A DNA stretch of 64,000 nt from Candidatus Magasanikiibacteriota bacterium (GTDB taxonomy: Bacteria > Patescibacteriota > Patescibacteriia > Magasanikbacterales > GWA2-37-8): contig JACOYB010000004.1 of the NCBI GenBank assembly GCA_016182085.1, positions 211,923-275,922 on the forward strand. The letters are read 5' to 3'. Below, piece by piece: positions 19,247-63,647 of the stretch. A model generated the notes under the pieces. That model saw only the letters and a list, made by a program, of their open reading frames with translations. It ran no database searches and was not told the origin of the DNA. Numbering within the stretch: the first letter of the stretch is position 1; every line of letters begins with the position of its first letter. The translations under genes and the position numbers were made by a program.

Positions 19247-22200
19247 ATGAAAAAGTACGACCCGAAAAAAATTGAAAAAAAGTGGCAAACTTATTGGGCT
19301 AAAAATAAGACTTTTGAAGTTAAAGAAGATAAGAAGAAAGAAAAATTTTATTCACTCATAGAATTCCCTTACCCAAGCGGAGAAGGACTTCATGTTGGCC
19401 ACCCGCGTCCATTTACGGCCATGGACGTAATTTCTCGTAAAAAAAGAATGGAAGGCAAAAATGTTTTATTCCCAATTGGTTTTGATGCGTTTGGACTGCC
19501 TACCGAAAATTTTGCCATTAAAACCGGCAAGCCGCCGGCCGAAGTAACCAAAAAAAATATTGCCAATTTTACGCGCCAACTCAAGATGTTGGGCTTTAGC
19601 TTTGATTGGTCTCGTGCTGTTGATACTACCGACCCAAATTATTATAAATGGACGCAAGAGATTTTTTTACAATTTTTCAAACATGGACTTGCTTACAAAA
19701 AAAACCAACCGATAAATTGGTGTCCAAAAGATAAAATCGGTCTGGCTAACGAAGAAGTAGTAAACGGAAATTGTGAGCGTTGTGGTACGGCCGTGGAAAA
19801 AAGAAATAAGGAACAGTGGATGCTGGCGATTACCAAATATGCGGATAAACTTTTACAAGGATTAAAAAATGTAGATTATATTGAGCGAGCCAGATTGCAG
19901 CAAGAGAATTGGATCGGCAAAAGCGAAGGTGCGCTGGTTCGTTTTTCGGTTGTCATTCCCGCCAAAGCGGGAATCCAGACAATTCAATCGGACGCTGGAT
20001 TCCCGATCAAGTCGGGAATGACAACGGTTGAAGTATTTACTACCCGCCCAGATACAATTTTTGGAGCTACTTTTTTGGCTATCTCTCCGGAGTTGGCCAA
20101 GAGTTGGTTAGAAGTGGGTTGGCAGGCTAGCGAAGAAGTTAAAAAATATATAACTCAAGCGCTGGAAGCTCGAAGCGCGGCCACTACTCGCGAAGAGCAA
20201 GAAAAAACAGGTATTAGCGCTGGTATTGTAGCCATTAATCCAGTTTCCAAAAAAGAAATTCCAGTTTGGATTACCAATTATGTAATGGGCGAAGTCGGTA
20301 CAGGCGCGATTATGGGTGTGCCGGCACACGATGAGCGTGATTTTGATTTTGCCAAGAAGTTTGGTTTGCCAGTTAAGCAAGTGGTTATGCAAAATATTGT
20401 GGTGGCAGGCGCTGCCGCACCACGAGATAATAAGGGTTTAATACAACGTAAAGTAGTTACAGGTATTATTCGCAATCCAAAAAATGATTCTTTTTTACTT
20501 TTACGACGCGCAGATAAAGAAAGTTCTTTTGTCGGTGGTACCATTGAAGATGGAGAGGATGCTATTGCAGCATTACGTCGTGAAATTGTAGAGGAAACTG
20601 GATATACAGATTTTGAAATTAAAAATACTGTTTTTCCTAATTTTTTTGGTAATGGTTATAAATTACGCGTTGATAAAAATTGCCTTGATTTTGAATATTT
20701 TTATGCGGTTGAATTAAATAGCGAACTTCACCAAGAGGTCAGTAAGGAAGAAATGGCAAAGCACGAGCCATTTTGGGTACCACGTGCGGATGTGTCTAAA
20801 ACAGTCACGCTTACAACGCATCAATACATGTGGAATCTTTATCAAGAAAATAAATACTGCTTCTCTGAAGATGGTATTGCTGTAAGTTCTGATTTTTTAA
20901 ATGGATTAAAAACACCGGAGGCCAAAGAAAAAATGATTAGCTGGCTTGAAGAACATAAGATAGGCAAAAAACAAATAAATTATAAATTGCGCGATTGGGT
21001 ATTTTCTCGCCAGCGTTATTGGGGTGAGCCTATCCCATTGGTATATTGTGAACATTGTAAAAATAAAAAACAGAAAGCTTTATTAATTCATGGTTTTGAA
21101 GCTACTGGAGATAGTAATTGGTTACCGTGGATGAAAATAGAATTAGAAAAACAAGGCTTTGAAGTAATGGTGCCAGCTCTGCCGGATAGTAGTCATCCTG
21201 ATCTTGGAAAATGGCTAGCAGTGTTGCAGCCGTATTTTGATAAATTGGGAGAAAATGATGTTATTGTTGGCCATAGTCTTGGCAGCAAAGCAGCCTTGCA
21301 CCTGCTAGAGACAAGTAAAAAGAAAATTGGTCATGTTTATTTAGTTGCTTCGGCTATTGGGCTTTTGGAGGAGCGGGATTGGAGTAAATTTGAACGCGAA
21401 TGGAAAGGGTCTGATGTAAAAGCGTTGCAAAAATTTTGGGAGAAGCCAGTTAAGTGGGAAGCGGTGGAAAAGTCAGTTGGTAATAAAAATTTAATTTTAT
21501 CTTCTGATGATCCATACATTAAAAAAGAAACTCATAAAAATTTGCCACCAGGATGGTTTTATCAGTTATGGTCTGGCTTTGGTCATTTCCAGCAAAAACA
21601 AATTCCTGAATTGTTAAATTTAATTTTGCAGAGTAAAAACACTGGCTGGGTACCTCTTCCCGAAAGTGAATTGCCGCTCAAACTTCCAAAAGTAGAAAAG
21701 TATCAGCCTACCGATACAGGCGAATCTCCGTTGGCGGCAATGGAAAAATGGGTAAAAACTAAATGTCCAAATTGTGGTGGCCCGGCCAAACGAGAAACAG
21801 ATACCATGCCAAATTGGGCCGGCTCAAGCTGGTATTTTTTGGCGTATGCGATGGGTGGGAAAAAAAGATTAAAAGAAAAAGGCGATAAATTTTGGGATAA
21901 AGAAATGCTAAAACATTGGCAACCGGTAGATTGGTACAATGGGGGAATGGAGCATACAGTTTTGCATTTGCTCTACTCTCGTTTTTGGAATCAATTTTTG
22001 TATGATATTGGCATGGTGCCAACACCGGAGCCATACGCCAAACGCACTTCGCACGGCATGATTCTGGCCAAAGGCGGAGAAAAGATGAGTAAATCGCGCG
22101 GCAATGTGGTAAACCCGGATGAGATGGTAGAACAGTTTGGCGCCGATGCTTTGCGTACCTATATTATGTTTATGGGTCCGTTTGATCAGGCGGTAGAGTG

Positions 22201-22765
22201 GGATACAAATGGGTTGGTGGGAGTAAAAAGATTTTTGGATAAAGTTTGGCGTTTAGGGAATAGGATCGGGGAGCATAAATTAGATCATCCTTGGGCAATG
22301 CATAAAACAATAGCTGCCGTTTCTGCAAGAATTGACAGTATGAGTTTTAATACCGCCATTTCAGAAATGATGGTTTATGCAAATTTATTAGAAAATCATT
22401 TAGGAGAAAATAAAGAGAATGGCACAGTTTCTCGTGAGGCAGTTGAAGCACTTGTGCTGCTTTTATCACCTTTTGCTCCACACTTATGTGAGCAAATATG
22501 GAGCCAGCTTGGTCATGAAAAAAGTATTGCCTTTGAAAAATGGCCAGAAGCTAATCAGGAAGAGTTAGAAAAAAAACAGAATATTAATTTGGCCGTGCAA
22601 GTAAACGGTAAATTACGTGACACTGTAACTGCTTGGTCCGATATTTCAGAGGAAGAAGCAAAGAAAGCGGCACTCGCTAGTGAAAAAATCCAAAAGTGGC
22701 TGGAAGGCAAAGAGCCGAAAAAAGTTATTTATGTAAAAGGCAAGTTAGTGAGTATCGTGGTTTAG
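19247..22765 (+). CDS. leuS: leucyl-tRNA synthetase with embedded Nudix and YdeN/RBBP9-type hydrolase domains and one in-frame palindromic element
   Basis: HIGH motif (HVGHPR), CP1 editing-domain motifs (TTRPDTIFGATFLAISPE), KMSKS (KMSKSRGN) and the anticodon-binding region are all present. One uninterrupted ORF of about 1170 aa (from 19235/19247), versus about 800-860 aa in typical LeuS. See findings. Confidence 0.9.
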   Translation: MKKYDPKKIEKKWQTYWAKNKTFEVKEDKKKEKFYSLIEFPYPSGEGLHVGHPRPFTAMDVISRKKRMEGKNVLFPIGFDAFGLPTENFAIKTGKPPAEVTKKNIANFTRQLKMLGFSFDWSRAVDTTDPNYYKWTQEIFLQFFKHGLAYKKNQPINWCPKDKIGLANEEVVNGNCERCGTAVEKRNKEQWMLAITKYADKLLQGLKNVDYIERARLQQENWIGKSEGALVRFSVVIPAKAGIQTIQSDAGFPIKSGMTTVEVFTTRPDTIFGATFLAISPELAKSWLEVGWQASEEVKKYITQALEARSAATTREEQEKTGISAGIVAINPVSKKEIPVWITNYVMGEVGTGAIMGVPAHDERDFDFAKKFGLPVKQVVMQNIVVAGAAAPRDNKGLIQRKVVTGIIRNPKNDSFLLLRRADKESSFVGGTIEDGEDAIAALRREIVEETGYTDFEIKNTVFPNFFGNGYKLRVDKNCLDFEYFYAVELNSELHQEVSKEEMAKHEPFWVPRADVSKTVTLTTHQYMWNLYQENKYCFSEDGIAVSSDFLNGLKTPEAKEKMISWLEEHKIGKKQINYKLRDWVFSRQRYWGEPIPLVYCEHCKNKKQKALLIHGFEATGDSNWLPWMKIELEKQGFEVMVPALPDSSHPDLGKWLAVLQPYFDKLGENDVIVGHSLGSKAALHLLETSKKKIGHVYLVASAIGLLEERDWSKFEREWKGSDVKALQKFWEKPVKWEAVEKSVGNKNLILSSDDPYIKKETHKNLPPGWFYQLWSGFGHFQQKQIPELLNLILQSKNTGWVPLPESELPLKLPKVEKYQPTDTGESPLAAMEKWVKTKCPNCGGPAKRETDTMPNWAGSSWYFLAYAMGGKKRLKEKGDKFWDKEMLKHWQPVDWYNGGMEHTVLHLLYSRFWNQFLYDIGMVPTPEPYAKRTSHGMILAKGGEKMSKSRGNVVNPDEMVEQFGADALRTYIMFMGPFDQAVEWDTNGLVGVKRFLDKVWRLGNRIGEHKLDHPWAMHKTIAAVSARIDSMSFNTAISEMMVYANLLENHLGENKENGTVSREAVEALVLLLSPFAPHLCEQIWSQLGHEKSIAFEKWPEANQEELEKKQNINLAVQVNGKLRDTVTAWSDISEEEAKKAALASEKIQKWLEGKEPKKVIYVKGKLVSIVV
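19952..20022. repeat. GTCATTCCCGC-family palindromic element, copy A, in-frame in leuS
   Basis: GTCATTCCCGccaaagCGGGAATCCAG...CTGGATTCCCGatcaagtCGGGAATGAC encodes VIPAKAGIQTIQSDAGFPIKSGMTT. Confidence 0.85.
20400..20830 (+). other. Nudix hydrolase domain embedded in LeuS
   Basis: The Nudix box GX5EX7REUXEEXGU is matched exactly by G TIEDG E DAIAALR RE I V EE T G Y. It lies between the editing domain and the NYKLRDWVFSRQRYWGEPIP motif. Confidence 0.7.
21060..21640 (+). other. YdeN/RBBP9-family alpha/beta serine hydrolase domain embedded in LeuS
   Basis: LLIHGFEATGDSNWLPWMKIELEKQGFEV...VIVGHSLGSKAALHLLE...GFGHF resembles B. subtilis YdeN (HWFPWLKK...AHSLG...GGHF). It is inserted between the zinc-knuckle cysteines CEHC and CPNCGG. 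Confidence 0.65.
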
Positions 22766-22868
22766 GCAGGCCAATTTAGTTTTATTAATGTTGGTTATTG
22801 TGGTAGAATAACAGAAAGTTAACTGTATTTGATTATGTCTGCCAAAGCTGAAAAAAGGATTATTTATT

Positions 22869-25273: not shown

Positions 25274-26848
25274 ATGTCTTTGTTGGACATAGACGTAATA
25301 AAACGCGCCGCGCTTCAATGGACGATTGCGCGGCATGATTTCGCTAAATCAAAAAGCAAAACGTTTCTCGCGTTTTGTTTTTGTTTTATAGCCGGCGCGG
25401 GCAGTTTTTCTTTCTTAGAAAGCGCAAATCTTTTATTTTATCTGTATATTTTTGTCTTTGTTATTTTATTTTTTACTATTATTTTCTGGTATAAAAAGTC
25501 GCATAGATTTTTATGGTTATGTCTGTTATTTTTTATTTTAGGAGCCGTTAGATTTTTAATTACCATTCCGGAAAAAAATAATTCCAGAGTAGAATTTTAT
25601 AATGGCGAGAAAAAGATTGTTCAAGGATTTATTATCAAAGAACCGGATAGAGGTGTAAGTGACGTGCGATATATCGTGCGTGTTGAAAAATTAAAAGAGG
25701 GTAGAAATTTTATTCCGGTAACAGGTAATATTGCGATCAAAACTCTGATTTATCCGGAATATAATTACGGCGATAATTTGGAAGTAGAATGTTTGTTGCA
25801 AGAGCCGGCAAATTTTGAAGATAGTAGATTTAATTACCAAAAATATTTGGCTAAACAAGATGTGCGGTCTATCTGCAGCAATCCAAAAATAAAAATATTA
25901 AAAGGCAGTAGCGGAAACTGGTTTATTAAAACTATGCTGGGTTTTAAGAAAAAAATACAAATCAATATTTCTCGGTTATGGCCCGAACCAGACGGCAGTC
26001 TAATGGCCGGAATACTCTATGGCAGCCGCAGCGGCTTGCCCGCAGATATAGCCGATAATTTTAGTCGTACAGGCATCAGTCATATTATTGCGGTATCCGG
26101 GTATAACGTAAGTATTATTATCGTGGCTTTAAATGCTATTTTAATTTATGTAGGATTTTTTCGCCGGCAATCATTTTGGCTTTTGGCATTTTTAATTTTA
26201 GCGTTTGTATTTTTTACCGGTGCCAGCGCTTCGGTGGTGCGCGCGGGAGTTATGGCGCTGGTAGTTTTGGTTGCGGGTCGGGTCGGCAGGCTGTCAGCTA
26301 TAGGACGGGTGTTGGTATATGCGTGTGTGATTATGCTTATTTTTAATCCGTATATACTTTTGTGGGATGCCGGGTTTCAACTATCATTTCTAGCCACGAT
26401 AGGTCTGGTGTATATATCGCCAATTATACAAAATTTTATTGATGGTAAATTTATTCTTAAAAATTCAGCTGTTTTAATTGTTCTAGAAGTATTTAGCACC
26501 ACCATGGCCGCGATTATCGCCACTCTGCCGCTTATTATGTATCAATTTGGCCGGGTGTCGCTCGTAGCGCCGCTTGTGAATATCCTAATTTTATGGGTCA
26601 TACCTTGGCTTATGTTGTTTGGATTTTTGGCGCTAATTTCTAGCTTTATAATTTTCCCCATCGGGCAACTTATTGCTTGGTTAACAGAAGTTGGTATACG
26701 GTATGTTATAATGGTAGTAAATTGGTTTGGGAATAAAAGCTGGAGCGCATTTGATATGCGAATTTCCTTGCCAGTTATGATTATTATTTACTTAATCTTA
26801 TTTATTTTTGTATGGCTAAAAAAGCCAAAGTTTTATCTTCAGAAATAG
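25274..26848 (+). CDS. comEC: ComEC/Rec2 competence channel protein (membrane core, no MBL domain)
   Basis: DUF4131-like N-terminus plus Competence domain (GISHIIAVSGYNVSII...FTGASASVVRAGVMALVVL). Confidence 0.75.
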   Translation: MSLLDIDVIKRAALQWTIARHDFAKSKSKTFLAFCFCFIAGAGSFSFLESANLLFYLYIFVFVILFFTIIFWYKKSHRFLWLCLLFFILGAVRFLITIPEKNNSRVEFYNGEKKIVQGFIIKEPDRGVSDVRYIVRVEKLKEGRNFIPVTGNIAIKTLIYPEYNYGDNLEVECLLQEPANFEDSRFNYQKYLAKQDVRSICSNPKIKILKGSSGNWFIKTMLGFKKKIQINISRLWPEPDGSLMAGILYGSRSGLPADIADNFSRTGISHIIAVSGYNVSIIIVALNAILIYVGFFRRQSFWLLAFLILAFVFFTGASASVVRAGVMALVVLVAGRVGRLSAIGRVLVYACVIMLIFNPYILLWDAGFQLSFLATIGLVYISPIIQNFIDGKFILKNSAVLIVLEVFSTTMAAIIATLPLIMYQFGRVSLVAPLVNILILWVIPWLMLFGFLALISSFIIFPIGQLIAWLTEVGIRYVIMVVNWFGNKSWSAFDMRISLPVMIIIYLILFIFVWLKKPKFYLQK

Positions 26849-30576: not shown

Positions 30577-30581
30577 CCCAT

Positions 30582-30608
30582 GTCATCCTGAACTTGTTTC
30601 AGAATGAC
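30582..30608. repeat. GTCATyCTGAAC-family hairpin, short copy G, acting as nusA terminator
   Basis: GTCATCCTGAACttgtttCAGAATGAC. Confidence 0.6.
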
Positions 30609-30633
30609 AATTATTTAGTCATTAGAAATTTTT

Positions 30634-31698: not shown

Positions 31699-32634
31699 AT
31701 GATTCAAGTTGAAACGCTGCAGCGTTCCATAAAAAATACCCTAACTTATTTTGATATAGCTGATTTTCCTCTTACCAAAGAGGAACTTTTTGTTTTTCTT
31801 TGGCAACCGCCCAGGGTTAGTTATGCGGATTTTTTAGAATTTTTACAGATAAATAATTCTGGATTTGAAACCAGACAGGGTTTTTATTTTTTGCCGGGCA
31901 GATCCGAACTTATAGAAACGAGGCAGCGCCGGCTGCTTATTTCCGAAAAAAAACTTAAGATCGCTCGTCGGGCGGCCGGAATAATTAGATCGGTTCCGTT
32001 TCTCAAAGCCGTGTTTGTCTGTAATACGGTCGGATCCGAACAAGCCAAAGAAGATAGTGATATAGATTTTTTTATAATTACGGCCAAAAATAGAATCTGG
32101 GTTACCAGATTGTTTGTTACATTTTTATTGAGTTTGTTTAGGTTAAGACGTGTTAAAGATCGCGTTAAAGATAAAATCTGCCTTAGTTTTTATGTGACCG
32201 AAGATAATTTGGATTTGTCTAAATTTAGAGTGGCTGACGATGATATTCACTTTGCTTTTTGGATAAACCAAATGTTGCCGCTATATGACCCGGATAATTA
32301 CTTCGCCAAATTTTTAGAGGCAAATAGCTGGACAAAAAAGTATTTACCGAATATAAATATTAGCAGCAGTGCATCTTATATTTTTAAAGTTTCCGATTCC
32401 CGCCTCGGGAAAATTTGGAAAAGTATCTGGGAAAAAATGTGGACAGGTGCTTATGGGGATTTGGTAAATGGTGAAGCCAAGAAAATACAATTATCCAAAA
32501 TGAAGTTTTCCGGCAATAAAATAGACAGAGGCGAAGATAAAGGCGTGGTAATTTCCGATTCTATTTTGAAGTTTCATGAGAAGGACACTAGGCTGCAATA
32601 TAGAGAATTATGGCAACACAAAATCGCATCCTAA
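31699..32634 (+). CDS. nucleotidyltransferase-domain protein (Pol-beta superfamily)
   Basis: The hG[GS]x9-13Dh[DE]h motif is present: CNTVGSEQAKEDSDIDFFII. Confidence 0.5.
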   Translation: MIQVETLQRSIKNTLTYFDIADFPLTKEELFVFLWQPPRVSYADFLEFLQINNSGFETRQGFYFLPGRSELIETRQRRLLISEKKLKIARRAAGIIRSVPFLKAVFVCNTVGSEQAKEDSDIDFFIITAKNRIWVTRLFVTFLLSLFRLRRVKDRVKDKICLSFYVTEDNLDLSKFRVADDDIHFAFWINQMLPLYDPDNYFAKFLEANSWTKKYLPNINISSSASYIFKVSDSRLGKIWKSIWEKMWTGAYGDLVNGEAKKIQLSKMKFSGNKIDRGEDKGVVISDSILKFHEKDTRLQYRELWQHKIAS

Positions 32635-34061
32635 TTTTAAAAAAAGCACAGGATTTGATCCTGATTGCGTTTTTGTTTTTGTTGCCTTGGCAGACCAGGT
32701 ACATTTGGCATTATGGCCAGTTGAATGGCGGGTATTGGGAGTATGGCACCGGCAGTATTTATGCGACCGAGATATTGTTGTGGATTATTTTAATTCTATT
32801 TTTTGTTAATAATTTTCTAAACAAAGAAGTTTGGGCGGGACTCATAAGGAGAAAAAATATTTTAGCACCTGTGTTTTTGCTGTTTTTGGCGGTACTTGGT
32901 TTTTCGGTAGTTTTTAGTGAAAATATTGGCGTGTCTTATGGTTATGTTTTTCACATCTTAGAAGGTATGGCTCTAATGACAGTGCTGGTGCGAAGTGGAC
33001 AATCGTTCGCTGTCATCCCGACCGCAGTGGAGGGATCCCTTATACCAAATCAAAAAGATTCCTCTATTACGCTTCGTTCCAATTGGAACGACAAATATTT
33101 GTATGCTATTTGGCTGGGCGCAGTAGGGCAGGGCATGTTGGCAATGTATCAATTTTTAAACCAAAGTGTTTTTGCGAGCAAATGGTTGGGGATGGCCGGG
33201 CAGGAGGCATATAATTTAGGTCCAAGCGTGATAGAGTTTGCCGACCAAAGATGGTTGCGCGCGTATGGAAGTTTTGGTTCGCCAAATTCACTCGGAATTT
33301 ATCTGGCAGTTTTGTTTGTCTTAGGTCTTATATTGTATTTAAAAACAGAATCCCCGCGTTATAAAATTTTAATCAGTATTGGCCAGCTATTTGTTTTGTC
33401 AGGTTTACTAGTCTCTTTTTCCCGAGGAGCGTGGCTCGCGGCTGTAGCCGGGGTGTTATGTTTATTTATAATTTTAATTTATAAGCGCAAACCGTCATTC
33501 CCGCCGCAAGCGGGAATCCAGGCAATCGGATCGGATACTAGATTCCCGCTTGCGGCGGGAATGACAAATTTGAAAGAATTTGCCAAACAAATAGTTTTTG
33601 TTTTAGCAGTAGTTGTATTTTGGGTAGCTATTTTTTATCCGGTATTTAACGCTCGGTTTAATCTGCAAAATCGCTTAGAAATAAAATCCGTTGCTGAAAG
33701 GCAGGAGCAGTATAGCGGGTCACTGGCGTTTATTAAAGTAAATTCAGTCTTAGGTGTTGGCCCGGGTGCATATACGTATGCGTTATATAAAAAATATTCA
33801 AATTTAGCTTCCTGGCAATATCAGCCAATCCACAATATTTATCTGCTTGGCGTAGTAGAAATGGGCGTAGTTGCGGCCGTGCTGCTTGCGTTCTTAATAG
33901 CAAATTTTGCTAAAATGATTATAAAAAATAATATTATTTATCTTCCGGTTCTAACTGCCCTGCTTGTTTCTGGCCTGTTTGATCATTGGCTTGCCAGCTT
34001 GTTTACGGGCATAATGTTGTGGTGGGTAATCTGGGGTCTAGGTCTAAAAAGAAACTCTTGA
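32610..34061 (+). CDS. O-antigen ligase / Wzy_C-family polytopic membrane protein with two in-frame palindromic-element insertions
   Basis: At least 10 TM segments and the SRGAW motif (LLVSFSRGAWLAAVAG). Elements at 33003-33031 and 33494-33565 are translated within the ORF. Confidence 0.65.
   Translation: MATQNRILILKKAQDLILIAFLFLLPWQTRYIWHYGQLNGGYWEYGTGSIYATEILLWIILILFFVNNFLNKEVWAGLIRRKNILAPVFLLFLAVLGFSVVFSENIGVSYGYVFHILEGMALMTVLVRSGQSFAVIPTAVEGSLIPNQKDSSITLRSNWNDKYLYAIWLGAVGQGMLAMYQFLNQSVFASKWLGMAGQEAYNLGPSVIEFADQRWLRAYGSFGSPNSLGIYLAVLFVLGLILYLKTESPRYKILISIGQLFVLSGLLVSFSRGAWLAAVAGVLCLFIILIYKRKPSFPPQAGIQAIGSDTRFPLAAGMTNLKEFAKQIVFVLAVVVFWVAIFYPVFNARFNLQNRLEIKSVAERQEQYSGSLAFIKVNSVLGVGPGAYTYALYKKYSNLASWQYQPIHNIYLLGVVEMGVVAAVLLAFLIANFAKMIIKNNIIYLPVLTALLVSGLFDHWLASLFTGIMLWWVIWGLGLKRNS
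33494..33565. repeat. GTCATTCCCGC-family palindromic element, copy B, in-frame
   Basis: Perfect 28-bp inverted repeat GTCATTCCCGCCGCAAGCGGGAATCCAG / CTAGATTCCCGCTTGCGGCGGGAATGAC. Encodes FPPQAGIQAIGSDTRFPLAAGMT. Confidence 0.85.
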
Positions 34062-36227: not shown

Positions 36228-36240
36228 ACAAAACTATTTT

Positions 36241-36306
36241 GTCATGCCGAACTTGTTTCGGCATCCCGTTATTAGCAAGGAGATCCCGAAACAAGTTCGG
36301 GATGAC
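36241..36306. repeat. GTCATyCTGAAC-family palindromic element, copy H
   Basis: GTCATGCCGAACTTGTTTCGGCATCCCG...CCCGAAACAAGTTCGGGATGAC. Followed by the terminator AAAAGCGCTCCgaaaGGGGCGTTTTTT. Confidence 0.7.
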
Positions 36307-36402
36307 AGAAAAACAAAAGCGCTCCGAAAGGGGCGTTTTTTGTTTGTAAAATGTTAGAATACAGAGTAGAATTAATTTAACTATTTAAATCATTTATAAA
36401 TT

Positions 36403-36894: not shown

Positions 36895-36917
36895 GTTTCC
36901 ATTTTTGGCTTCTCACC

Positions 36918-36951
36918 CTATAAGGGGGAGGATATAGGAGGGGGTTTCGGA
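36918..36951 (+). repeat. 32-bp direct repeat (left copy) flanking the DUF559 gene
   Basis: ccctataagggggaggatataggagggggttt compared with 37476-37507 ccctataagggggaggacagaggagggggttt. Confidence 0.75.
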
Positions 36952-37507: not shown

Positions 37508-37521
37508 TTTGTGCTAATACT

Positions 37522-43329: not shown

Positions 43330-43355
43330 TATGTTAGTTGCCAGTTTGGCGTAAT

Positions 43356-49300: not shown

Positions 49301-50960
49301 TAAATATCAAGGAGCTTTATGGAATGTGCTTGAAGAACCGGATGGCCAACCTATCCAAGGAGCTCAACGATTATTTGGTGAAGCCATCAGTTTATCACCC
49401 GGACAGTATGTTTGGTCTGATGGGCGTGATAGGAACGCATGGTATATGCGTCATGATGATGGTCAAGGTGACGGGAACGACGACTATCAATTTATTGGCC
49501 CAAGTTCTGAGGTAATGGGGCAGTATGCTGATCTGCTAAGATCGGATTGTGCCGGTCCGATAGATGTACCGCAAAATTGTTGGACAAACAATACCGGTCC
49601 TAATTGCAGGGATCGTTATCAACGTGATTGTATAGTCGGTGGTGCCGACAATAGTGACGACGGCTGTTCTGTAAAAGTCGTATTTGATCCGAATGGTCGT
49701 TTAAATAGAATAAATTTAGTTTGTTTAACCGGTGATTCCCGACATGAAGAAGGTAGAAACTTCAACTTCTATGTTGGTTTGCGCGAACCTTGCGCCAACA
49801 TTGCTCAAACCGAAACAAATTCGTATACATCCGTTGGTTGGACAGACAGGTTGTGGCGTCAAAGTACATTTGCAATCCCAACATTAAATTATCGTAATTC
49901 ACTTATCAGTTCTCCGTATGGTAGTTTGGCTATGCCAAGTTCACTTGTGTCGGATAAACTGATTAATATATTTACCCACTATAATGCTGACACATTTGAT
50001 CCGCCGCCAGCCATAGCCGGCGCTCCATATTCTTGCGCAGGCACTTGTTTGCAAACTAACCCAACCGCGCAGGAAGGTTTGTCTGGCACGGCCAGCCAAA
50101 GAACCTCGGCGCAAGGACGGGATAGCCTGGCACAAATTTTTGCCAAAATTGATAATGTTTGGAATTGGGGCTTTAGTACTGCCAATTCAGCCTGGTCGTA
50201 TCAAGCAAATACAAGTCTTCCATATAACTTTACTGAAACTTTAACTTCAGCCGTAAATACGCCGCAAGTGCATACCTTGGGAGCCTGCAGACCCGGAGGA
50301 AAATGTTTGGAAGGTAATGTTGCCGGTATAAGTATAAACGATAGAGCCAGCGGTGATCTTGTGTTTAATAGCAATGTTGGTGTTGTTAATGCCAAATTCT
50401 TTGGCTTCGCCAACAAAGATCAAATGCCAATCAGAAAAATTAAATTGGATTGGGGAGACGGCAATGTTGTTTCTCTAGACGGTTATTTCCGTAATCAGCG
50501 CGGTACGGTAAATGGAACTTGTGGAACAGGAGGCAAATGTTTGGTCGGTTCTACCGATACCGGTAAATCATGTACATCAAATAGTGATTGTACAAACATA
50601 GATAATTGTTTTGCCGAAAGCCAAGCGCCAAACTTTGGACAAATAGTCGGCAAGACTTGCGACTCTGCCTATTTCCGATTTGATCATGTCTATCAGTGTT
50701 CTCGCGAAAGCAGTAATTGGACAAATAGTTGTCCAAACGCGCAAGCCCAGAGTTTGTATGGCGGTTGTTGTGTCTTCCAGCCAAAAGTTCAGCTCAAGGA
50801 TAATTGGGGATGGTGCAATGGGGTTTGTGGGGATGCGGGAAGTCCAGGTGGAACAGGTTGTTACGATGCAAATGTAGGCACAGGAATAAAGGAATGTGAA
50901 ACTTTGCCATCTGCATATACACCTTCTTCTGCCAGAGTAATTGTTGCACCTGCTGATTAA
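43356..50960 (+). CDS. giant (about 2535 aa) secreted Cys/Asn/Gly/Thr-rich surface protein
   Basis: Single uninterrupted ORF. The track starts at TTG 43338; ATG 43356 gives signal peptide MTKFQKFGIKFLLAVFTFITIGGSLFYARPAQA. Roughly 150 or more cysteines, many as CxxC and C-x(n)-C pairs. No catalytic motifs recognised. Confidence 0.8.
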   Translation: MTKFQKFGIKFLLAVFTFITIGGSLFYARPAQAFPVEITWDPGYVWSVYKSFIKDAAVSISIQTFSYFLRRVAYDSAVWLASGGKGQASFAYGKNFGDYLKDVGDSAAGVAIEALGEDFGFNLCKIPDPKIDLAMRIGLTHKFMDLKPDLNTGPGVREPTCTWSTFQNDVLSVDNWQSQFGSSDSIARKFNVAFSVEQTDIGILRGATDKINQYVAKKIEAETLQRQEGDGYLPKTTLISGDILTPGKNISEEAQAQNPNKQTESAQAGFLSTLGTGAVGTIASAGSIFFNTLASQMLKNWQNKGMLPFGIGCVAGVGTECKDLQDTLSDLQGQVSRGGRQAAQALFNDLLTPPNIAVDQYNVLVNFTNCPTSPGPDNCVADAGLAQAAQEANSGRTVTIAEALEKNWLHSEWRLVSPDRVADNVDPSCHQRAYCYANIAKLRKARILPLGFEIAALNSNPDQPWTLKQVVDGFNDCNFIRDVNGNVVGVENDPVNKPFCRLIDPNWVLKAPPSKCNFLAYGTSPYFSGTPNRIQECVNMSTCVAYDKDGNCATQGYCTREKNVWKIDAAKCDSQNRTCRTFQDSTGKTVSYLYRTLDTGFCNQDTVGCAEYSLKQNTAGNWIGYAENDLGSLGENSSVYFNNKVSTNCSSNSDGCSSFQVANSSEKLYLKKAPYYSQCYDTDQTTAVIDWPRTASDLNRLPNKPACNNYSQACIESEVNCNWYAPSSYTGDAIPGKFTPASVNEGQIVWNDQCDARCVGYAAYREMPSNYSNGQPVSYVIPSSGNSCSAADEGCASFTNLGTTEGGLEKVEHYSYLRPCILPDTTKQKTFYTYEGSAVGGFQLKSFILEKDTDGSPKYFYRTADDLATYAATCSQNLYQQGLASPDCRQFNDDQGAVYYKLLSKTIAVASNCTPFRLNDTELHDVALNEVNCLAQRGKWDAAAGSCQVCFQNGEYRDGECFYYGLPGNTPNTAGTSKPCAAAANTCRAYKGNTGNNVRNIFTNNFEQSVASDALAGWGPSSDIAQSLESTRSGEHSLSYNGTGAVYKDIVLTPGESYDLTFWAKGAVGETVTVTLENNQVSNLGTISVGDAWQNYHLGPVELTGNVSSTKLQFAVNGRLFLDNVHLKEVTDFIYLVKNSLSVDPVCDSNLNDNLPGEALGCSQYQTPDNRPIYLTGFTSLCREKAIGCTAVYDTRNTPDEVGPRAYNVWLSGPEGQSTSRNIVGTEYRCQVALGQKGCYVHVTGANLSSIVAGGGAIVTSTIYVQPDSPTTTPLYLVASREATCSPVDLGCTKAGKLVQTPTGPTYTEVTVKKDPSSFNTTLCQQEAVGCNAYSSSDGALYFKDPQYLGQKVCAYRDNVTKNGVRYNGWFWKGVGKCGAGNASDPFCTKDSDCASGVTCNQKDEQPCYPNYLQSGNNYGLWSYGVSSSYNNFVGECPATQNGCTEFIDRNENNKTYYLINDDRLKTQQTECNGQISEKNGCILLDRTDSPNKLWNTAASYAVSAGQNNNLVAPVAGTGTVTNDANVILKVSRDRECGEWLQCRSSHRVFDTQSGSYKEVCDAIGRCNKSSDSYSNADFINCSNWLDNNHELSNQILTDDAYRNRNTTWKGQDFSGYSILNTFPIEELSEVNVGNATAADWRLAKTLACGGGPNCRSATDPNSPSCGLTSVGLPCGRNNAGVCLGSVNPVCVQDLDSPVVGVPRQSIAPSCRAYPEETSPFPNSQAISDSLAFNSVNTCNETSGFSTDPGKYNSCECNYTKVTYGDAVTKYWNFKNPNNEGILDTNNQNIQGVVSGICVGGDSADRACDSDSDCTGGSCQKLKKQSRLIGWQGYCIEYDYSRPLNAEQNSFACLTWFPKDNITGAFDINNQHVEAGFQATETNGKYYCLEAKGYQETNSNPAVNGSGALTYNRFLGGGNISKPGSSDDPADPDRAKRVVVADPAKPIYRDEIDYILVSPVGGGGSWFPNTSQSFYIRNGLITKYQGALWNVLEEPDGQPIQGAQRLFGEAISLSPGQYVWSDGRDRNAWYMRHDDGQGDGNDDYQFIGPSSEVMGQYADLLRSDCAGPIDVPQNCWTNNTGPNCRDRYQRDCIVGGADNSDDGCSVKVVFDPNGRLNRINLVCLTGDSRHEEGRNFNFYVGLREPCANIAQTETNSYTSVGWTDRLWRQSTFAIPTLNYRNSLISSPYGSLAMPSSLVSDKLINIFTHYNADTFDPPPAIAGAPYSCAGTCLQTNPTAQEGLSGTASQRTSAQGRDSLAQIFAKIDNVWNWGFSTANSAWSYQANTSLPYNFTETLTSAVNTPQVHTLGACRPGGKCLEGNVAGISINDRASGDLVFNSNVGVVNAKFFGFANKDQMPIRKIKLDWGDGNVVSLDGYFRNQRGTVNGTCGTGGKCLVGSTDTGKSCTSNSDCTNIDNCFAESQAPNFGQIVGKTCDSAYFRFDHVYQCSRESSNWTNSCPNAQAQSLYGGCCVFQPKVQLKDNWGWCNGVCGDAGSPGGTGCYDANVGTGIKECETLPSAYTPSSARVIVAPAD

Positions 50961-56355: not shown

Positions 56356-57578
56356 AAAATAGTATGGCCGAACCAATGATACAAATTAAAAAACCTGATG
56401 GAACTTTTACAAAAGTTCCGCTTAGTGAATTTAAAAAAATGCAGGCAAAACCTGCGCCAAGCCCTGTGGCTGCGCTTGCTCCTGCTCCGGTAGCAGAAGT
56501 AAAAGAGGTAAAAAAAGAAATGGAAGAAAAAGTTGAGCTGCCGCAAATTAAGCCGGAATCAGAAATTGAAAAACCAAAAGCCGAAACGCCTCATGCTCAT
56601 CGTGCTCATGTTGCTCATACGGTACTCAAACATCCGGTAGAAATTAAAAAACATACACCCGCGCATCACGCAACTCACGCTCATAAAAAATTAACTCGTG
56701 AAGATGCCAAATCTCCGTTGGAGGAAAAGATGCCGGTAAAAACTGATGCGCCTATGGTGAGCGCTAAACGTGAAAATCAAGTGGAAGAAGTAATAAGGAA
56801 AATTGGTTTTGGCGTGGCTCCGGATTTGCAAGGCAGATTGAAAAGTCTGATTCTGGCCAGGTTAAAAGATATAAAAAGCGAAGATGAGATACGAGATATT
56901 CTTTTGCGTCCGGTAAAAAATAGCGGCTTGGGATTATCCGAAGGACAGGTAGAAAAAATTATTAAATTGTGTCGAGAAGTATTGGGAGCTGATGCCGCAA
57001 AAGCTGCAAGTGATAATGCGCAGACGCCAATTTTGAAAGGCAAATCCGGCGGCATGGCGCTTATGGTTGAACCGCCTGAATTACCAATGGTGATACCCGT
57101 AAAAAGCAGCTTTTCTGTGAAAAATTCCACTCCGCCGGCACCGCTCAACAAATTCGCAACCGATACCATTGTTTCAAGGATAATAAAGGAAAACATGGCT
57201 GACGAGCCGATGTTTAAAATTAGCAATAAGCCCGCAGTCAGACAAGTAGTGCAAGATATTTCTGTTCCGGATATGGAAATGGGGCCGGTGGAAGAGTTTA
57301 AATCAATAACTATCACTGAATTTAGAAGATTATCCAGCAATCCGGAAGAAGCGGCCAAACGACTGTATCAAAAAATGTCCAATTTGCAAGAAGAATCATT
57401 CGTGTGGTATTTGGATGCGGTCGCGGCATATCATAACTCGCCGCTATATTTGGAATATATGTCGGCGGTAAGCCAGTCGCTGGCGGAAAGAAAATCACTG
57501 GCGAATGTACTTGCGGCAAAAAATGGTATAAAATTAAATGAGGTGATGGCAATTATTGAAATGGAAAAAACATTATAG
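56343..57578 (+). CDS. hypothetical His/Ala/Pro-rich protein in the T4SS-like cluster
   Basis: 411-aa ORF. Short overlap with the neighbouring ORFs suggests translational coupling. Confidence 0.45.
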   Translation: MEYIKNSMAEPMIQIKKPDGTFTKVPLSEFKKMQAKPAPSPVAALAPAPVAEVKEVKKEMEEKVELPQIKPESEIEKPKAETPHAHRAHVAHTVLKHPVEIKKHTPAHHATHAHKKLTREDAKSPLEEKMPVKTDAPMVSAKRENQVEEVIRKIGFGVAPDLQGRLKSLILARLKDIKSEDEIRDILLRPVKNSGLGLSEGQVEKIIKLCREVLGADAAKAASDNAQTPILKGKSGGMALMVEPPELPMVIPVKSSFSVKNSTPPAPLNKFATDTIVSRIIKENMADEPMFKISNKPAVRQVVQDISVPDMEMGPVEEFKSITITEFRRLSSNPEEAAKRLYQKMSNLQEESFVWYLDAVAAYHNSPLYLEYMSAVSQSLAERKSLANVLAAKNGIKLNEVMAIIEMEKTL

Positions 57579-58035
57579 CTGTCATCCTGACAATAAACGT
57601 ATGGATCAATTCGTAGTGCCACAATTTATAGAAGTAGAAGATAAGATTTTTGGCCCAATTACGACCAGGCAGTTTATTATTTTGCTTGTCACGGCCTTGA
57701 TTTTATTTATCACTTTCAAATTGGCGGATACGGTCCTATTTATTTTTTTGGCTGCAGTTATTGGCGGATCCTCACTGGTTATCGCGTTTGTAAAAATAAA
57801 CGGCCAGCCGTTTCATTATTTTTTACTAAATCTAGTTCAAACCGTTCGCCGCCCCAGTCGTAGGATTTGGTACAAAGATTTTACCAAGGCCGAACTGACG
57901 GAATCAATTAAATCGGGGAAAATAGAGGTTGTAGAAGCTGTAAAAGAAGTGCCAAAAATGTCATATAGCCGTATTCGCGATCTGTCATTAATTGTTAATA
58001 CGGGTGGGTACTATAGTGGAAGCGAGCGAGAATAA
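57556..58035 (+). CDS. PrgI / VirB3-like small membrane protein
   Basis: VPQFIEVEDKIFGPITTRQFIILLVTALILF resembles the PrgI-family N-terminus, followed by two TM helices. Confidence 0.5.
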   Translation: MKWKKHYSCHPDNKRMDQFVVPQFIEVEDKIFGPITTRQFIILLVTALILFITFKLADTVLFIFLAAVIGGSSLVIAFVKINGQPFHYFLLNLVQTVRRPSRRIWYKDFTKAELTESIKSGKIEVVEAVKEVPKMSYSRIRDLSLIVNTGGYYSGSERE

Positions 58036-58113
58036 TACATTATGTATAATGTATTATCGAGCGAACGACACTATATGCGGCCTTTAGGCCCATATAAGCC
58101 GGAGTAGCACACT

Positions 58114-58186
58114 GTCATTCCCGCCCGGGAGCGGGAATCCAGGCAATTCGACCGGATACTAGATTCCCGCTTGCGGCGGGAATGAC
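58114..58186. repeat. GTCATTCCCGC-family palindromic element, copy D
   Basis: GTCATTCCCGCCCGGGAGCGGGAATCCAG...CTAGATTCCCGCTTGCGGCGGGAATGAC. Confidence 0.8.
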
Positions 58187-58209
58187 AACAAAAACGTAAA
58201 ATAAAAAGT

Positions 58210-58887
58210 ATGAAAGAAAAGCCAAAGAAAAAGAAAATTAAAGTTCCCAGCGCTCAAAGCCATCTCCCGTTCGCGGAGGTGAAGTTTGATACCGTAATCA
58301 TGAAAGATGGAACATTGCGGGCGGTGCTTATGGTGTCCAGTATAAATTTTGCTTTAAAGAACGAAGATGAGCAAAACGCGATTATTTCTTCGTATGTTTC
58401 TTTTCTAAATGGCATTGATTTTCCGCTGCAGATTGTGGTGCAATCTCGGCAGCTATACATTAAACCATATTTGGAAAAATTGTTAAAAAAAGAACGTGAA
58501 CAAACTAATGAATTATTGCGCGTACAGATAGCCGATTACAGATCATTCGTATCCGAACTCGTAAGCCTGGGAAATATTATGAGCAAACAATTCTTTGTAG
58601 TTGTTTCGTACGATCCGCTTTCCAACAGAAAAAAAGGTTTTTGGTCTAGAATGAAAGAAGTCGTAAATCCGGCAGTGACTATAAAATTAAAAGATGAACG
58701 GTTTCAGCTGCGCAAACACGATCTTGATATGAGGGTGCGCCAAATAGAATCAGGATTAACCAGCATGAATTTAGAAGTGGTCAGGCTGGACACGCAATCA
58801 TTAATAGAACTATTCTATTCCACCTATAATCCCGATATCGCGTTTAGCGAGCATTTGCCGCCAGTGGGTGAGCTGCGAGTAGAATAG
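58210..58887 (+). CDS. VirB4/CagE/TrbE-type conjugal ATPase, N-terminal domain encoded as a separate ORF
   Basis: FAEVKFDTVIMKDGTLRAVLMVSSINFALKNEDEQNAI matches the VirB4 N-terminal domain pattern. Confidence 0.5.
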   Translation: MKEKPKKKKIKVPSAQSHLPFAEVKFDTVIMKDGTLRAVLMVSSINFALKNEDEQNAIISSYVSFLNGIDFPLQIVVQSRQLYIKPYLEKLLKKEREQTNELLRVQIADYRSFVSELVSLGNIMSKQFFVVVSYDPLSNRKKGFWSRMKEVVNPAVTIKLKDERFQLRKHDLDMRVRQIESGLTSMNLEVVRLDTQSLIELFYSTYNPDIAFSEHLPPVGELRVE

Positions 58888-58921: not shown

Positions 58922-60799
58922 ATGGCTTTTAAACCAAAATTTGCTACCGGATCATTTTCCAAACAGAAAGGGCCTTTGACTAGCAAGGAAGAAGATATCA
59001 GTAAAAAATCCGGTGAGGAACTTATAACCCTGGAAGAAGAAAGGGTATATCGTGAAGGCACGGTTTCCATTAAGGATTTGCTTGCGCCTTCGGCTTTTAA
59101 TGTTGAATCAAATTTTGTAAAGTTGGGCGATATATTTTGCCGGACGATTTTTGTTGTAACGTACCCGAGGTATATTTCCATCGGTTGGAGTTCGCCGGTA
59201 TTAAATTTATCCATCACGATGGATGTGGGAATGTTTTTCTATCCCGTGAAATCCGCTATTATTTTAAAACAGTTAAAAAATAAAGTCGGCGCCTTGGAAG
59301 CGCAGCTTAACGCGGATTCGGAAAAAGGCGCGCCGCGCGACCCGGTGCGTGAAACGGCTTTGCGTGATATTGAACAGTTGCGTGATGATCTAACTCAAGG
59401 TATTGAACACTTTTTTCAATTCTCATTTTACGTAACCCTTTACGCCAAAAGCAAAGAAGAGCTTGATCAAACTTCGGAAGACGTGGAAAATATTTTTGGC
59501 TCCAAACTTATTACCAGCCGTAAAGTTTTATATCAGGCTGAGCAGGGTTTTAATTCCACCTTGCCGCTGGCCAATGACGAACTGATGATTTCATTTAACT
59601 TAAACTCTTCGCCGATTGCCGCGTCTTTTCCATTTACTTCCGCCGAACTTACTTCCGATGATGGTATTTTGTACGGCGTCAATCGCCACAATAACAGTCT
59701 TATTTTGTTTGATAGATTTTCTTTACAGAATGCCAACATGGCTGTGTTTGCGACCTCCGGTGCCGGTAAAAGTTACGCGATCAAATTGGAAATTTTACGC
59801 AGTATGATGATGGGGGTTGATGTTATCGTAATTGACCCGGAAATGGAATACAAACATTTGGCCGATGCCGTGGGCGGAACCTATATAAACATTTCTCTTT
59901 CTTCCGAAGCCAAAGTAAATCCGTTTGATTTGCCCAGACCAACCGGCGGAGAAGATTTTTCCACCGAAGATATTATTCGCGGCGCGGTGATAACCGTAAA
60001 AGGTTTGCTTCGTATCATGCTTGGCAATCTCACCACGGAGCAGGATTCTATTATAGACAGGGCGCTTATTGAAACATACGCTAAAAAAGATATTACGCCC
60101 GAAGCAGACCTCAGTGTTGTACAGGCGCCGATAGTGCAAGATTTGCAAGAAATTTTGGAAGGCATGGAAGGCTCCGGAGATTTGGTATTAAGACTTAAAA
60201 AATATACTGAAGGTACGTTTAGCGGGCTCTTCAACGCCCCAACCAATGTGGACATGAAAAATCAACTCGTGGTATTTAGCGTGCGTGATTTAGAAGACGA
60301 GCTTCGTCCGATGGCTATATACGCGATCGTTAACTATATTTGGAATGTTGTACGTTCGGAACGAAAGAAGAGAATTTTGGTAATTGATGAGGCGTGGTGG
60401 CTGATGCAGCACGAAGATAGCGCACGGTTTATTTTTGCCCTGGTTAAACGCGCCCGCAAGTATTATTTGGGGGTTACAACCATTACCCAGGATGTAAATG
60501 ACTTTTTAAAATCACAGTACGGTCAGGCTATAGTTACAAACTCCGCTTTGCAGCTCTTGCTCCGTCAGTCACCGGCGGCCATTGATTTGGTGCAAAAAGT
60601 TTTTATCCTTACCGAAGGCGAAAAATATTTGCTCTTAGAGAGTGGAGTAGGGGAGGGAATATTTTTCGCCGGTAATAAGCATGCGGCTATAAAGGTGGTA
60701 GCATCGTATACCGAAGATCAACTCGTAACCACCAACCCGGAGCAGCTCTTAGAAATAGAAAGGTCTAAAAAAGAATTTGAAAAACAAACCGGACAATAA
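58922..60799 (+). CDS. VirB4/TraC-type ATPase, C-terminal ATPase domain
   Basis: Walker A FATSGAGKSYAIK and Walker B RILVIDEAWWLM. 625 aa. Confidence 0.7.
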   Translation: MAFKPKFATGSFSKQKGPLTSKEEDISKKSGEELITLEEERVYREGTVSIKDLLAPSAFNVESNFVKLGDIFCRTIFVVTYPRYISIGWSSPVLNLSITMDVGMFFYPVKSAIILKQLKNKVGALEAQLNADSEKGAPRDPVRETALRDIEQLRDDLTQGIEHFFQFSFYVTLYAKSKEELDQTSEDVENIFGSKLITSRKVLYQAEQGFNSTLPLANDELMISFNLNSSPIAASFPFTSAELTSDDGILYGVNRHNNSLILFDRFSLQNANMAVFATSGAGKSYAIKLEILRSMMMGVDVIVIDPEMEYKHLADAVGGTYINISLSSEAKVNPFDLPRPTGGEDFSTEDIIRGAVITVKGLLRIMLGNLTTEQDSIIDRALIETYAKKDITPEADLSVVQAPIVQDLQEILEGMEGSGDLVLRLKKYTEGTFSGLFNAPTNVDMKNQLVVFSVRDLEDELRPMAIYAIVNYIWNVVRSERKKRILVIDEAWWLMQHEDSARFIFALVKRARKYYLGVTTITQDVNDFLKSQYGQAIVTNSALQLLLRQSPAAIDLVQKVFILTEGEKYLLLESGVGEGIFFAGNKHAAIKVVASYTEDQLVTTNPEQLLEIERSKKEFEKQTGQ

Positions 60800-63453: not shown

Positions 63454-63490
63454 AAACTAGGTAGTAGAGGGTAGTGAGTGAGGAGTAGTT

Positions 63491-63647
63491 GTCATCCCTT
63501 CGACAGGCTCAGGGCAGGCTCTGAATGAAGTGAAGGATATCCGTCAGTTCAATTGTCATTCCCATTGCAATGGGAATCCAGACAATCGTCGACTGGATTC
63601 CCGCTTTGGCGGGAATGACAGAGATTCTTCGCTCTGCTCAGAATGAC
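63491..63647. mobile_element. nested palindromic elements: GTCATTCCCGC-family copy E (63555-63619) inserted into a GTCATyCTGAAC-family element
   Basis: Left arm GTCATCCCTTCGACAGG...CTGAATGAAGTGAAGGATATCCGTC and right arm GACAGAGATTCTTCGCTCTGCTCAGAATGAC match copy I (42240-42316). Copy E replaces the central loop. Confidence 0.7.

Follow-up and report, generated by a model that had tools for sequence, protein, structure and literature searches.

Analysis of a 64,000-nucleotide stretch of contig JACOYB010000004.1 (hereafter the window), from a Candidatus Magasanikbacteria genome, identified a family of short palindromic elements, mostly built of two inverted hairpin arms, which lie between genes and, in frame, within genes. 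A preliminary description of the same DNA had spoken of a genome like those of the Candidate Phyla Radiation (CPR), which proved correct: a Wzy_C protein 100% identical to that of the window carries the name Candidatus Magasanikbacteria. [quoted passage not shown] We assign this explanation a probability of about 0.72.

Fourteen element sites were listed in the 64-kb window, to which the element census and the gene scans refer: nine with two arms, three lone arms, one weak-armed and one doubtful remnant (Table 1). Five of the elements are in frame, in four genes: tsaD, leuS, rsmA and, twice, a gene for a Wzy_C/O-antigen-ligase protein. The preliminary description had reported a family of five copies, A to E, of the form GTCATTCCCGC…GCGGGAATGAC; all five were found, with boundaries moved by no more than 1-2 nt, and the family proved to be larger, the members not then recognized being marked as added in Table 1. 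The "partial copy" reported at 33003-33031 belongs to the family, as the left arm of a full two-arm in-frame element of another arm type (33010-33095), and the "diverged relative" between infB and trxA is present, its extent being corrected to 18684-18796. The extra members were found by reading around each GTCAT/ATGAC pair; those with two arms share the ends TGTCAT…ATGACA and differ in their stems.

When one mismatch is allowed, the window contains 8 instances of the 11-mer GTCATTCCCGC (0.69 expected), a number reached in none of 100 dinucleotide-preserving shuffles. Folding of copies A-E as single-stranded DNA gave z scores of -5.9 to -9.8 relative to shuffled sequences. Hairpin formation had also been proposed earlier; in the lowest-energy fold copies A-D each form one long hairpin, and copy E forms two local ones.

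Each arm consists of a (T/C)GTC tag, a hairpin of 8-9 bp beginning with an A-T and a T-A pair, and a tail ATC(C/T)AG; the arms read ATTCCCGC, CAAA or CGCAA, GCGGGAAT and then CCAG or CTAG. Two arms face each other over a spacer of 11-16 nt, and the tags point outward in every two-arm element of the window. Among the ten arms of copies A-E the tag is TGTC in nine and CGTC in one; the other arm types carry the same tag, except for the decayed right arm of the first Wzy_C site, which has GTCGTT for GTCAT. In a set of 18 arms covering every type, GTCAT and the post-stem ATC are invariant, the first two stem pairs are preserved in 16-17 arms, and stem pairs 7-24 (UA 9, CG 5, GC 1, UG 2) and 9-22 (CG 9, UA 8) covary. 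A covariance model of these 18 arms, which recovers its own training arms by construction, found nothing else convincing in the window beyond the listed arms. An Rfam scan of the window returned two tRNAs only, the elements matching no RNA family.

CGTC-tagged REPs have been described as having an unpaired CGTC tag, with the variants TGTC and CCTC, a stem of 8-9 bp with A-T and T-A as first pairs, closed by a loop of 4-5 nt, and a short tail of the CCA type (Di Nocera, De Gregorio & Rocco 2013, PMC3733652). They occur mainly as head-to-head dimers with spacers conserved within each family, some of the dimers being intragenic and encoding 20-30 residues; CGTC-1 is dRS3 in Neisseria and Rickettsia palindromic element 6 (RPE-6) in Rickettsia conorii, and RPE-4 is CGTC-4 (PMC3733652). 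The window arms show all of these features: tag, stem, tail and head-to-head dimers. In Neisseria, the NTS repeat, CGTCATTCCCGCGMAVGCGGGAATCYRG, includes dRS3, and a degenerate Ssn-related motif (SRM) has also been defined; NTS and SRM hairpins flank the small Ssn nucleases, which cut them as single-stranded DNA (Chenal et al. 2025, PMC11893778). For SsnA, the 3 nt upstream of the palindrome govern cleavage and the C immediately after it governs binding (PMC11893778), and the invariant positions of the window arms coincide with those reported as critical. Six of the ten arms of copies A-E fit the published definitions, three of them NTS with 2 mismatches and the other three SRM (3 matches against 0.16 expected); arms fitting neither differ in loop length.

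As judged from their sequence, the window elements are head-to-head dimers of CGTC-tagged REPs belonging to the dRS3/NTS/SRM/RPE-6 family. The likeness to RPEs and to dRS3 noticed in the preliminary description reflects genuine family relationships, through the NTS/SRM matches and CGTC-1 (PMC3733652, PMC11893778); the link to Ssn nuclease cassettes had been missed.

This link was traced in public sequences. A search with an Ssn consensus returned more than 8000 proteins of approximately 95 residues carrying PF01541, with 71-83% identity, and the Tyr-Tyr-Glu spacing of these Ssn-like proteins agrees with Y6/Y17/E64 of SsnA. A profile hidden Markov model (HMM) was built from 120 real Ssn-like proteins, and the genes found were assigned to Ssn by PF01541 together with the spacing of the catalytic residues. 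Single-domain GIY-YIG genes (PF01541, 93-107 aa) flanked by the same inverted arms were found in metagenomes at six loci, L126, L129, L142, L144, L187 and L188. The L126 cassette consists of TGTCATTCCCGCGCAAGCGGGAATCCAG, the gene and TGGATCCCCGCTTTCGCGGGGATGACA, and that of L129 is similar; full cassettes with ATTCCCGC arms are present in L142 and L188, and L187 has a different arm type. At L144 the Ssn-like gene is flanked by TGTCATTCTGAGCAGAGCGAAGAATCTCTGTC … GACAGAGATCCTTCACTGCGTTCAGGATGACA. Compared with the element in rsmA of the window, the left arm of L144 is identical at 29 of 32 positions and the right arm has a similarity ratio of 0.89.

A metagenome scan with the CCCGCC-type arm of the window yielded 120 stretches, 7 of which contain Ssn-profile matches. 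Decayed cassettes were recognized at L149 and L151, where CCCGCC-type arms surround remnants of 70 and 46 codons (Ssn-profile E = 8e-22 and 2e-11, respectively). There is thus a series running from full cassettes through decayed ones and dimers of 65-80 nt to single hairpins, as would be expected for MITE-like derivatives, and the terminal inverted repeats of the gene-less elements are those which end the gene-bearing GIY-YIG cassettes. Because the dimer architecture equals the cassette ends (arm, Ssn-type gene of ~95 codons, inverted arm), the window copies are taken to be gene-less derivatives.

Other features were seen around GIY-YIG genes. At L144 (6811-7092, 7049-8707) another GIY-YIG gene (PF01541; YhbQ-like by eye) comes directly after the Ssn-like one, with a gene for a PIF1-type helicase behind it, and three further CGTC-type arms are stacked upstream of the Ssn gene. 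The one GIY-YIG open reading frame (ORF) found near a dimer, in L082 (3398-3646, minus strand), was rejected as Ssn, since CGTC arms are absent and duplicated halves of a tRNA gene enclose it; it resembles an intron or homing endonuclease in a tRNA gene, on a low-G+C, CPR-like contig.

Copies A and B lie within unbroken ORFs and encode, as reported earlier, the peptides IPAKAGIQTIQSDAGFPIKSGMT and FPPQAGIQAIGSDTRFPLAAGMT. Copy A adds 19 residues, relative to Escherichia coli leucyl-tRNA synthetase (LeuRS), to the first beta-hairpin of the editing domain of the 1176-residue window LeuRS, in a segment which has no alignment to solved LeuRS structures. Peptides which would span insert junctions of the window proteins include …RFSVVIPAKAGIQ… and …SGMTTVEVF…. 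LeuRS sequences with a delimitable NWIG-TTRPDT segment were compared (114, i.e., the window protein and 113 orthologues). The loop is short and native in 80 and expanded in 34, and at least 20 of the 34 expanded loops show recognizable CGTC-REP peptides, of three arm types: VIPAxAGIQ…SGMT, VILNEAKRSEESL…QDD and VIASEAKQS…PRND. The five LeuRS nearest to the window protein all lack the insert, and parsimony on a rough neighbour-joining tree requires at least 25 gains or losses.

The window leuS is 80-93% identical in nucleotide sequence to that of the nearest relative, L268, except at 19933-20037, where a native loop tract of ~64 nt in L268 corresponds to ~105 nt made up of the element and new flanking codons. 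The earlier view of this copy as an insert is correct in that the nearest orthologues lack it; what occurred, however, was replacement of the native loop and not simple insertion. In its right arm, copy A is similar to the same-family element which L002 has at this LeuRS site, and the right-arm loop GATCARGTC is common to copy A, L002 and L003. Descent of copy A and the L002/L003 copies from one old insertion was set aside as the simplest reading, the five nearest LeuRS being empty.

The native loop which was replaced comprises 14 residues (comparison with L268 and L001), and its DNA, …ATGATTCCTGGTCAGCCGGACAATAAA…, aligns weakly to an element arm; a common native LeuRS loop of 37 residues, PLRMIPGQTDDKH, aligns weakly to the right arm. 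One may speculate that the native loop is itself an old, decayed arm. The LeuRS ORF (19235-22765) also has embedded NUDIX (residues 405-522) and Ser_hydrolase/alpha-beta-hydrolase (616-776) domains, and the LeuRS of relatives carry NUDIX, HAD_2 and hydrolase modules in differing combinations. The spacer between trxA and leuS is empty in the window (19143-19234), contains a PDDEXK_3 nuclease-fold gene in L001 (552-935) and an unannotated ORF in L268 (886-1344), and is another variable slot for small selfish-looking genes.

The Wzy_C/O-antigen-ligase protein (483 residues) carries two inserts, at sites 1 and 2. Most orthologues are empty at both sites; the others bear the same or other arm types in exactly those loops. 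At site 2 a clean net difference of +72 nt, with conserved flanks, separates the window gene from that of L269, its closest orthologue without an insert at this site. A same-family element is found at this site in L124 and L123, and L125 has a single hairpin of 27 nt (SFPPQAGMT). The site-1 copy is orthologous in L269, with ~70% nucleotide identity, and shows a compensatory change at both positions of one stem pair, from C-G to T-A. The AlphaFold model of the protein has a mean predicted local distance difference test score (pLDDT) of 89.3 and a predicted template-modelling score of 0.90; pLDDT falls to 52-62 over residues ~130-160 and 291-320, being 54-55 in the site 1 loop and 52-62 at site 2. 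The model places both inserts between helices, in loops predicted to be disordered.

In rsmA the element corresponds to residues 221-255, which have no alignment to solved KsgA/RsmA structures. In tsaD the Pfam TsaD match is split in two, the first stretch ending at residue 123, immediately before the element. The behaviour known from RPEs, that is, an in-frame palindrome which is absent from orthologues and lies in a tolerant region, was found in LeuRS, Wzy_C, RsmA and TsaD. The earlier description of the host genes as essential is correct for leuS, probably correct for tsaD and rsmA, and not established for the Wzy_C gene.

The elements are copied as whole units, spacer included, and the units recur from genome to genome in different genes. 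In L123, Wzy_C site 2 has the spacer and right arm of copy A (ACAATTCAATCGGAC… GATCAAGTC), and the spacer type of copies B and D recurs at the same site in L124, so that two spacer subfamilies are common to the window and other genomes. The peptide of the rsmA element, SLSQSTNGQRSFAKAQDD, recurs within the LeuRS proteins P0038 and P0043. Within the window, copies B and D share 92% identity along 64 nt, and the left arms of copies A and C share 95%. The intergenic copies at 30580-30610 and 36240-36308 are absent from the matching spacers of L269, which at the former site has unrelated sequence.

The dimer core GGGAATCCAG-N5-30-CTRGATTCCC was found in more than 100 genomes, at the least, of Alpha-, Beta-, Gamma- and Deltaproteobacteria, Planctomycetes, Nitrospirae, Acidobacteria, Gemmatimonadota, Chloroflexi, Elusimicrobia, Omnitrophota, Zixibacteria and CPR. 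The arms in these genomes are near NTS and the spacers are unrelated. In viral contigs the core occurred in 16 stretches of 2.9 million contigs, with few true dimers; phages are therefore no obvious vector.

According to the explanation we prefer, Ssn nucleases encoded elsewhere in the genome would recognize the hairpin and nick beside the tag on single-stranded DNA, and nicking could drive the copying, conversion or loss of elements. Copies whose length is divisible by 3 and which land in tolerant surface loops would survive in genes, where they would be translated as disordered peptides of 24-27 residues. The sequence family, the architecture common to dimers and cassettes, presence and absence among orthologues and the position in protein loops are observed; mobility driven by a nuclease and translation of the inserts are inferences. 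Where intragenic copies have clean boundaries, their lengths are 72, 72 and 78 nt; the intergenic copies C, D and E measure 70, 73 and 65 nt. The left end TGTCATTCC has no stop codon in any of the three frames and the right end GGAATGACA has one, TGA, in a single frame; the arm-adjacent tails, as read in the sequence, contribute none. The frames of the ends and the lengths of the copies are as expected if landings were random in a genome ~86% of which is coding and were then filtered for frame and stop codons.

Several observations weigh against this explanation. No Ssn/GIY-YIG or transposase gene was found in the window by six-frame HMM and Pfam scans, a regular expression for the GIY-YIG motif likewise gave nothing credible there, and none of 122 public loci around gene-less dimers contained an Ssn gene when searched by regular expression, tblastn probes and HMM, so that the link to Ssn exists at the level of genome and family and not of the locus. 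The Ssn profile was seeded by a hand-written consensus and validated only by its own matches. The contig of L144 probably comes from a CPR, Magasanikbacteria-like relative, an indirect assignment to which its low G+C content (37%) contributes. A tblastn search with the window proteins found no shared genes in L141, L144, L147, L161, L142 or L149 and so gave no confirmation of their relation to the window genome; the locus of the LeuRS protein P0033 is syntenic with the window. An inverted dimer presents just one recognizable arm per strand, and reading of the flanks revealed no direct repeats (target-site duplications) at any copy. Ssn is known only as a single-stranded DNA nuclease and is not known to transpose DNA. 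The copy at Wzy_C site 1 looks vertically inherited, so that not all copies are recent, and the replacement in leuS, with its new flanking codons, points to recombination no less than to insertion at that site.

The elements could instead have spread mainly by homologous recombination and gene conversion, competence-acquired DNA moving "filled" alleles, Ssn nicks stimulating or limiting exchange, and copies converting one another. The leuS replacement is in line with this, as are its peptide flanks GALVRFSV…VEVF, which resemble those of element-bearing LeuRS from other lineages. The same site carries different spacer subfamilies in different genomes, and copy A has a left arm 95% identical to that of copy C and a right arm like the copy at its LeuRS site in L002. 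[quoted passage not shown] The window itself contains the competence gene comEC (25274-26848), which makes recombination through transformation a serious complementary route. Recombination between alleles, however, cannot move the same unit into the non-homologous leuS, Wzy_C gene, rsmA and intergenic spacers, and the clean 72-nt difference between conserved flanks at Wzy_C site 2 is also against it. As the principal route of spread it is doubtful; it is likely to act alongside the Ssn-dependent propagation of gene-less elements, and not instead of it. Another possibility is that the hairpins are kept for use by the host, at transcript ends, in mRNA stability, in nucleoid or DNA structure or as uptake and transformation signals, spread being secondary. 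REPs and MITEs have been reported to act at the RNA level (PMC3733652), copy C and the element at 36240-36308 sit just 3' of genes, stem pairs covary over the arm types, and the orthologous copy of Wzy_C site 1 has the double C-G to T-A change. Covariation would equally arise if the hairpins co-evolved with a nuclease or if repair acted inside the palindrome, the intergenic copies are not followed by a T run, five copies lie within coding sequences of unrelated proteins and a terminator there would do harm, the corresponding sites of close relatives are without copies, and Rfam gave no match; a primary role for the host is improbable.

Classical REPs or bacterial interspersed mosaic elements (BIMEs) moved by an IS200/IS605-type REP-associated tyrosine transposase (RAYT), or MITEs of an ordinary insertion sequence, would also give small palindromes, dimers and small mosaic clusters, a layout resembling that of REP/BIME (PMC3733652). 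The tag, though, is CGTC/TGTC and not GTAG; neither a tyrosine nor any other transposase gene is present in the window and no Y1 transposase lies beside the arms; genes found between such arms encode GIY-YIG proteins; no target-site duplications were seen; and CGTC repeats have been reported not to flank RAYT genes (PMC3733652). This origin is very improbable. The preliminary description had itself pointed out that the copies would be ordinary conserved protein regions if orthologues in all relatives shared the peptide segment. That the ORFs stay open is all that speaks for such regions, or for assembly artefacts. The five nearest LeuRS are empty and Wzy_C site 2 differs cleanly from L269, the segment is absent from 80 of 114 LeuRS and from most Wzy_C orthologues, near-identical nucleotide units occur at non-homologous loci, and same-site elements appear in independent assemblies from ENA, JGI and NCBI, which leaves this reading scarcely credible.

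More tentatively, Ssn cassettes may constitute a genuine, hitherto unrecognized class of mobile elements with a single-strand-specific GIY-YIG nuclease as their driver. Their gene-less dimers would still be active in CPR bacteria, preferring, or replacing one another at, particular hairpin-prone sites. We consider this possible but on the whole unlikely. If true, a preference for hairpin-prone targets would explain the repeated hits in the same LeuRS and Wzy_C loops, and a measurable share of the loop sequence of CPR housekeeping proteins would be repeat-derived.

Comparison with known systems showed both shared and distinct features. With CGTC-1 REPs the window elements share the unpaired CGTC/TGTC tag, the A-T/T-A first pairs, the head-to-head dimers and the intragenic position of some copies; those REPs were at the time said to have no dedicated enzyme (PMC3733652). 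They differ in that 5 of 14 sites are intragenic here and that several arm types occur within one 64-kb stretch. With the neisserial NTS/SsnA system they share arms at most 2 mismatches from NTS, the invariant GTC and C, and the NTS-ssn-NTS cassette layout, which was recovered with the same arms. In Neisseria meningitidis only 2% of NTS are intragenic and long mosaic arrays are formed (PMC11893778), whereas the typical form in the window is a compact gene-less dimer of 65-80 nt, often in frame in genes.

Like RPEs, the window elements are in-frame palindromes in housekeeping genes, adding a tolerated peptide and belonging to the same CGTC superfamily, the equivalences of RPE-6 and RPE-4 being taken from PMC3733652. 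The host of RPEs is an intracellular alphaproteobacterium, whereas that of the window elements is a CPR bacterium. RPE-1, the classic case, measures ~100-150 bp and belongs to a different sequence family. Bacterial MITEs such as Correia/NEMIS, RUP and Nezha are likewise short and non-coding, variable in presence, and have terminal inverted repeats equal to the ends of a gene-bearing parent; the window elements differ in lacking a target-site duplication, in having as parent gene a GIY-YIG nuclease and not a known transposase, and in that each terminal repeat is itself a hairpin. REP/BIME with RAYT (REPtrons) resemble the window system in their hairpin dimers, in the small gene between inverted repeats and in the implied chemistry of single-stranded hairpins; REPtrons use a GTAG tag and a tyrosine (HUH) transposase, the window system a CGTC tag and a GIY-YIG nuclease.

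The kind of element is thus known. What is new relative to PMC3733652 and PMC11893778 is the CPR host, the high in-frame fraction with recurrent loops, and the sequence series leading from cassette to dimer. These results extend the CGTC-REP/NTS family to the CPR, with 5 of 14 sites in genes against 2% in Neisseria, and lend sequence-level support to the open suggestion that CGTC repeats are non-autonomous partners of Ssn GIY-YIG cassettes. For annotation, repeat peptides (VIPAKAGIQ…, SFPPQAGIQ…GMT, VILNEAKRSEESL…, CHSERSEESL…) matter in that they add to the length of proteins, give rise to spurious protein families and interrupt metagenome assemblies. The recurrent loops are natural maps of insertion tolerance for LeuRS, RsmA, TsaD and Wzy-type proteins.

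Table 1. Palindromic elements of the window, with their context, the matches to the 18-arm covariance model and folding scores
Element	Position	Strand	Arms and peptide	Context	Remarks
Two-arm element	166-241		arms ATTCTGAGG / ATCCTGAAC; peptide NVILNNVKDPSRSYKRDSSAKPQNDKK	in frame in tsaD, minus-strand ORF 3-620	added; arm-model matches 167-197 (+), 212-240 (-)
Two-arm element, 113 nt	18684-18796		ATTGCGA arm type	intergenic, infB/trxA	weak arm-model matches 18685-18725 (+), 18751-18787 (-), E 0.14-0.25; DNA fold z = -6.7
Copy A	19951-20023			in frame in leuS (ORF 19235-22765), beta-hairpin at start of CP1 editing domain	
Single hairpin	30580-30610		TGTCATCCTGAACTTGTTTCAGAATGACA	intergenic, nusA/yidC	added
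Two-arm element	33010-33095		left arm ATCCCGACC; right arm decayed	in frame, Wzy_C site 1, residues ~134-162	left arm clear arm-model match; right arm weak (33072-33093, E 4.6)
Copy B	33493-33566			in frame, Wzy_C ORF 32610-34061, site 2, residues ~295-319	
Two-arm element	36240-36308		arms ATGCCGAAC / ATCCCGAAC	intergenic, 3' of groEL, upstream of conserved terminator-like hairpin	added; recovered by arm model; DNA fold z = -10.1
Two-arm element	42238-42319		ATTCTGAAC…ATCTCTGTC / GACAGAGAT…CAGGATGAC; peptide CHSERSEESLSQSTNGQRSFAKAQDDK	in frame in rsmA	added
Copy C	42547-42618			intergenic, 24 nt past rsmA stop codon	
Lone arm	42622-42660	minus	GGGATCCTTCGCGCCGCTCAGGATGA	adjoins copy C, forming a small mosaic cluster	added; arm-model match 42630-42656 (-)
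Copy D	58113-58187			intergenic, PrgI-like/TraC-like genes	
Possible degenerate member	63489-63553		start TGTCATCCC, end GAAGGATATCC	adjoins copy E	sequence reading only, membership uncertain; not picked up by arm model
Copy E	63554-63620			intergenic, nifU-like/class-V aminotransferase genes, both minus strand	
Lone arm	63620-63648	minus	GAGATTCTTCGCTCTGCTCAGAATGACA	abuts copy E	added; arm-model E = 9e-5

Other repeats are present in the window. A DUF559 (Vsr-like endonuclease) gene at 36959-37336 is bracketed by another family of hairpin repeats (CCTCCCCCTATAAGGGGGAGG…GGAGGGGGTTT), located at 36908-36945, 37336-37375 and 37470-37510; in relatives the same slot is occupied by a bAvd/23S_rRNA_IVP gene (L125) or by an ORF of no assigned family (L269). 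The sequence AAAGTTTGCCAAGTGTCTCGATTAACCCTACGG occurs in four copies (2455-2528, 4977-5050, 5540-5613 and 6278-6351) and, with two more duplicated modules (4161-4266/5472-5577 and 1720-1768/4274-4322), bounds small cassettes, one of which contains a gene (4706-4960) for a ParE/YafQ-like toxin. In its layout the region resembles a cassette array; no integrase was seen there and Rfam gave no match.

Genes similar to those of type IV secretion systems (T4SS) are scattered at 11632-12165, 57556-58035, 58210-58887 and 58922-60799 (T4SS pilin, PrgI-like, TraC-like and TraG/VirB4-like ATPase). An ORF of 2540 residues (43338-50960) has a carbohydrate-binding module as its sole domain match. Two pairs of direct repeats of 64-74 nt, 78-86% identical (27210-27273/27929-27992 and 27871-27944/28275-28348), mark tandemly duplicated 5' regions of small neighbouring genes.

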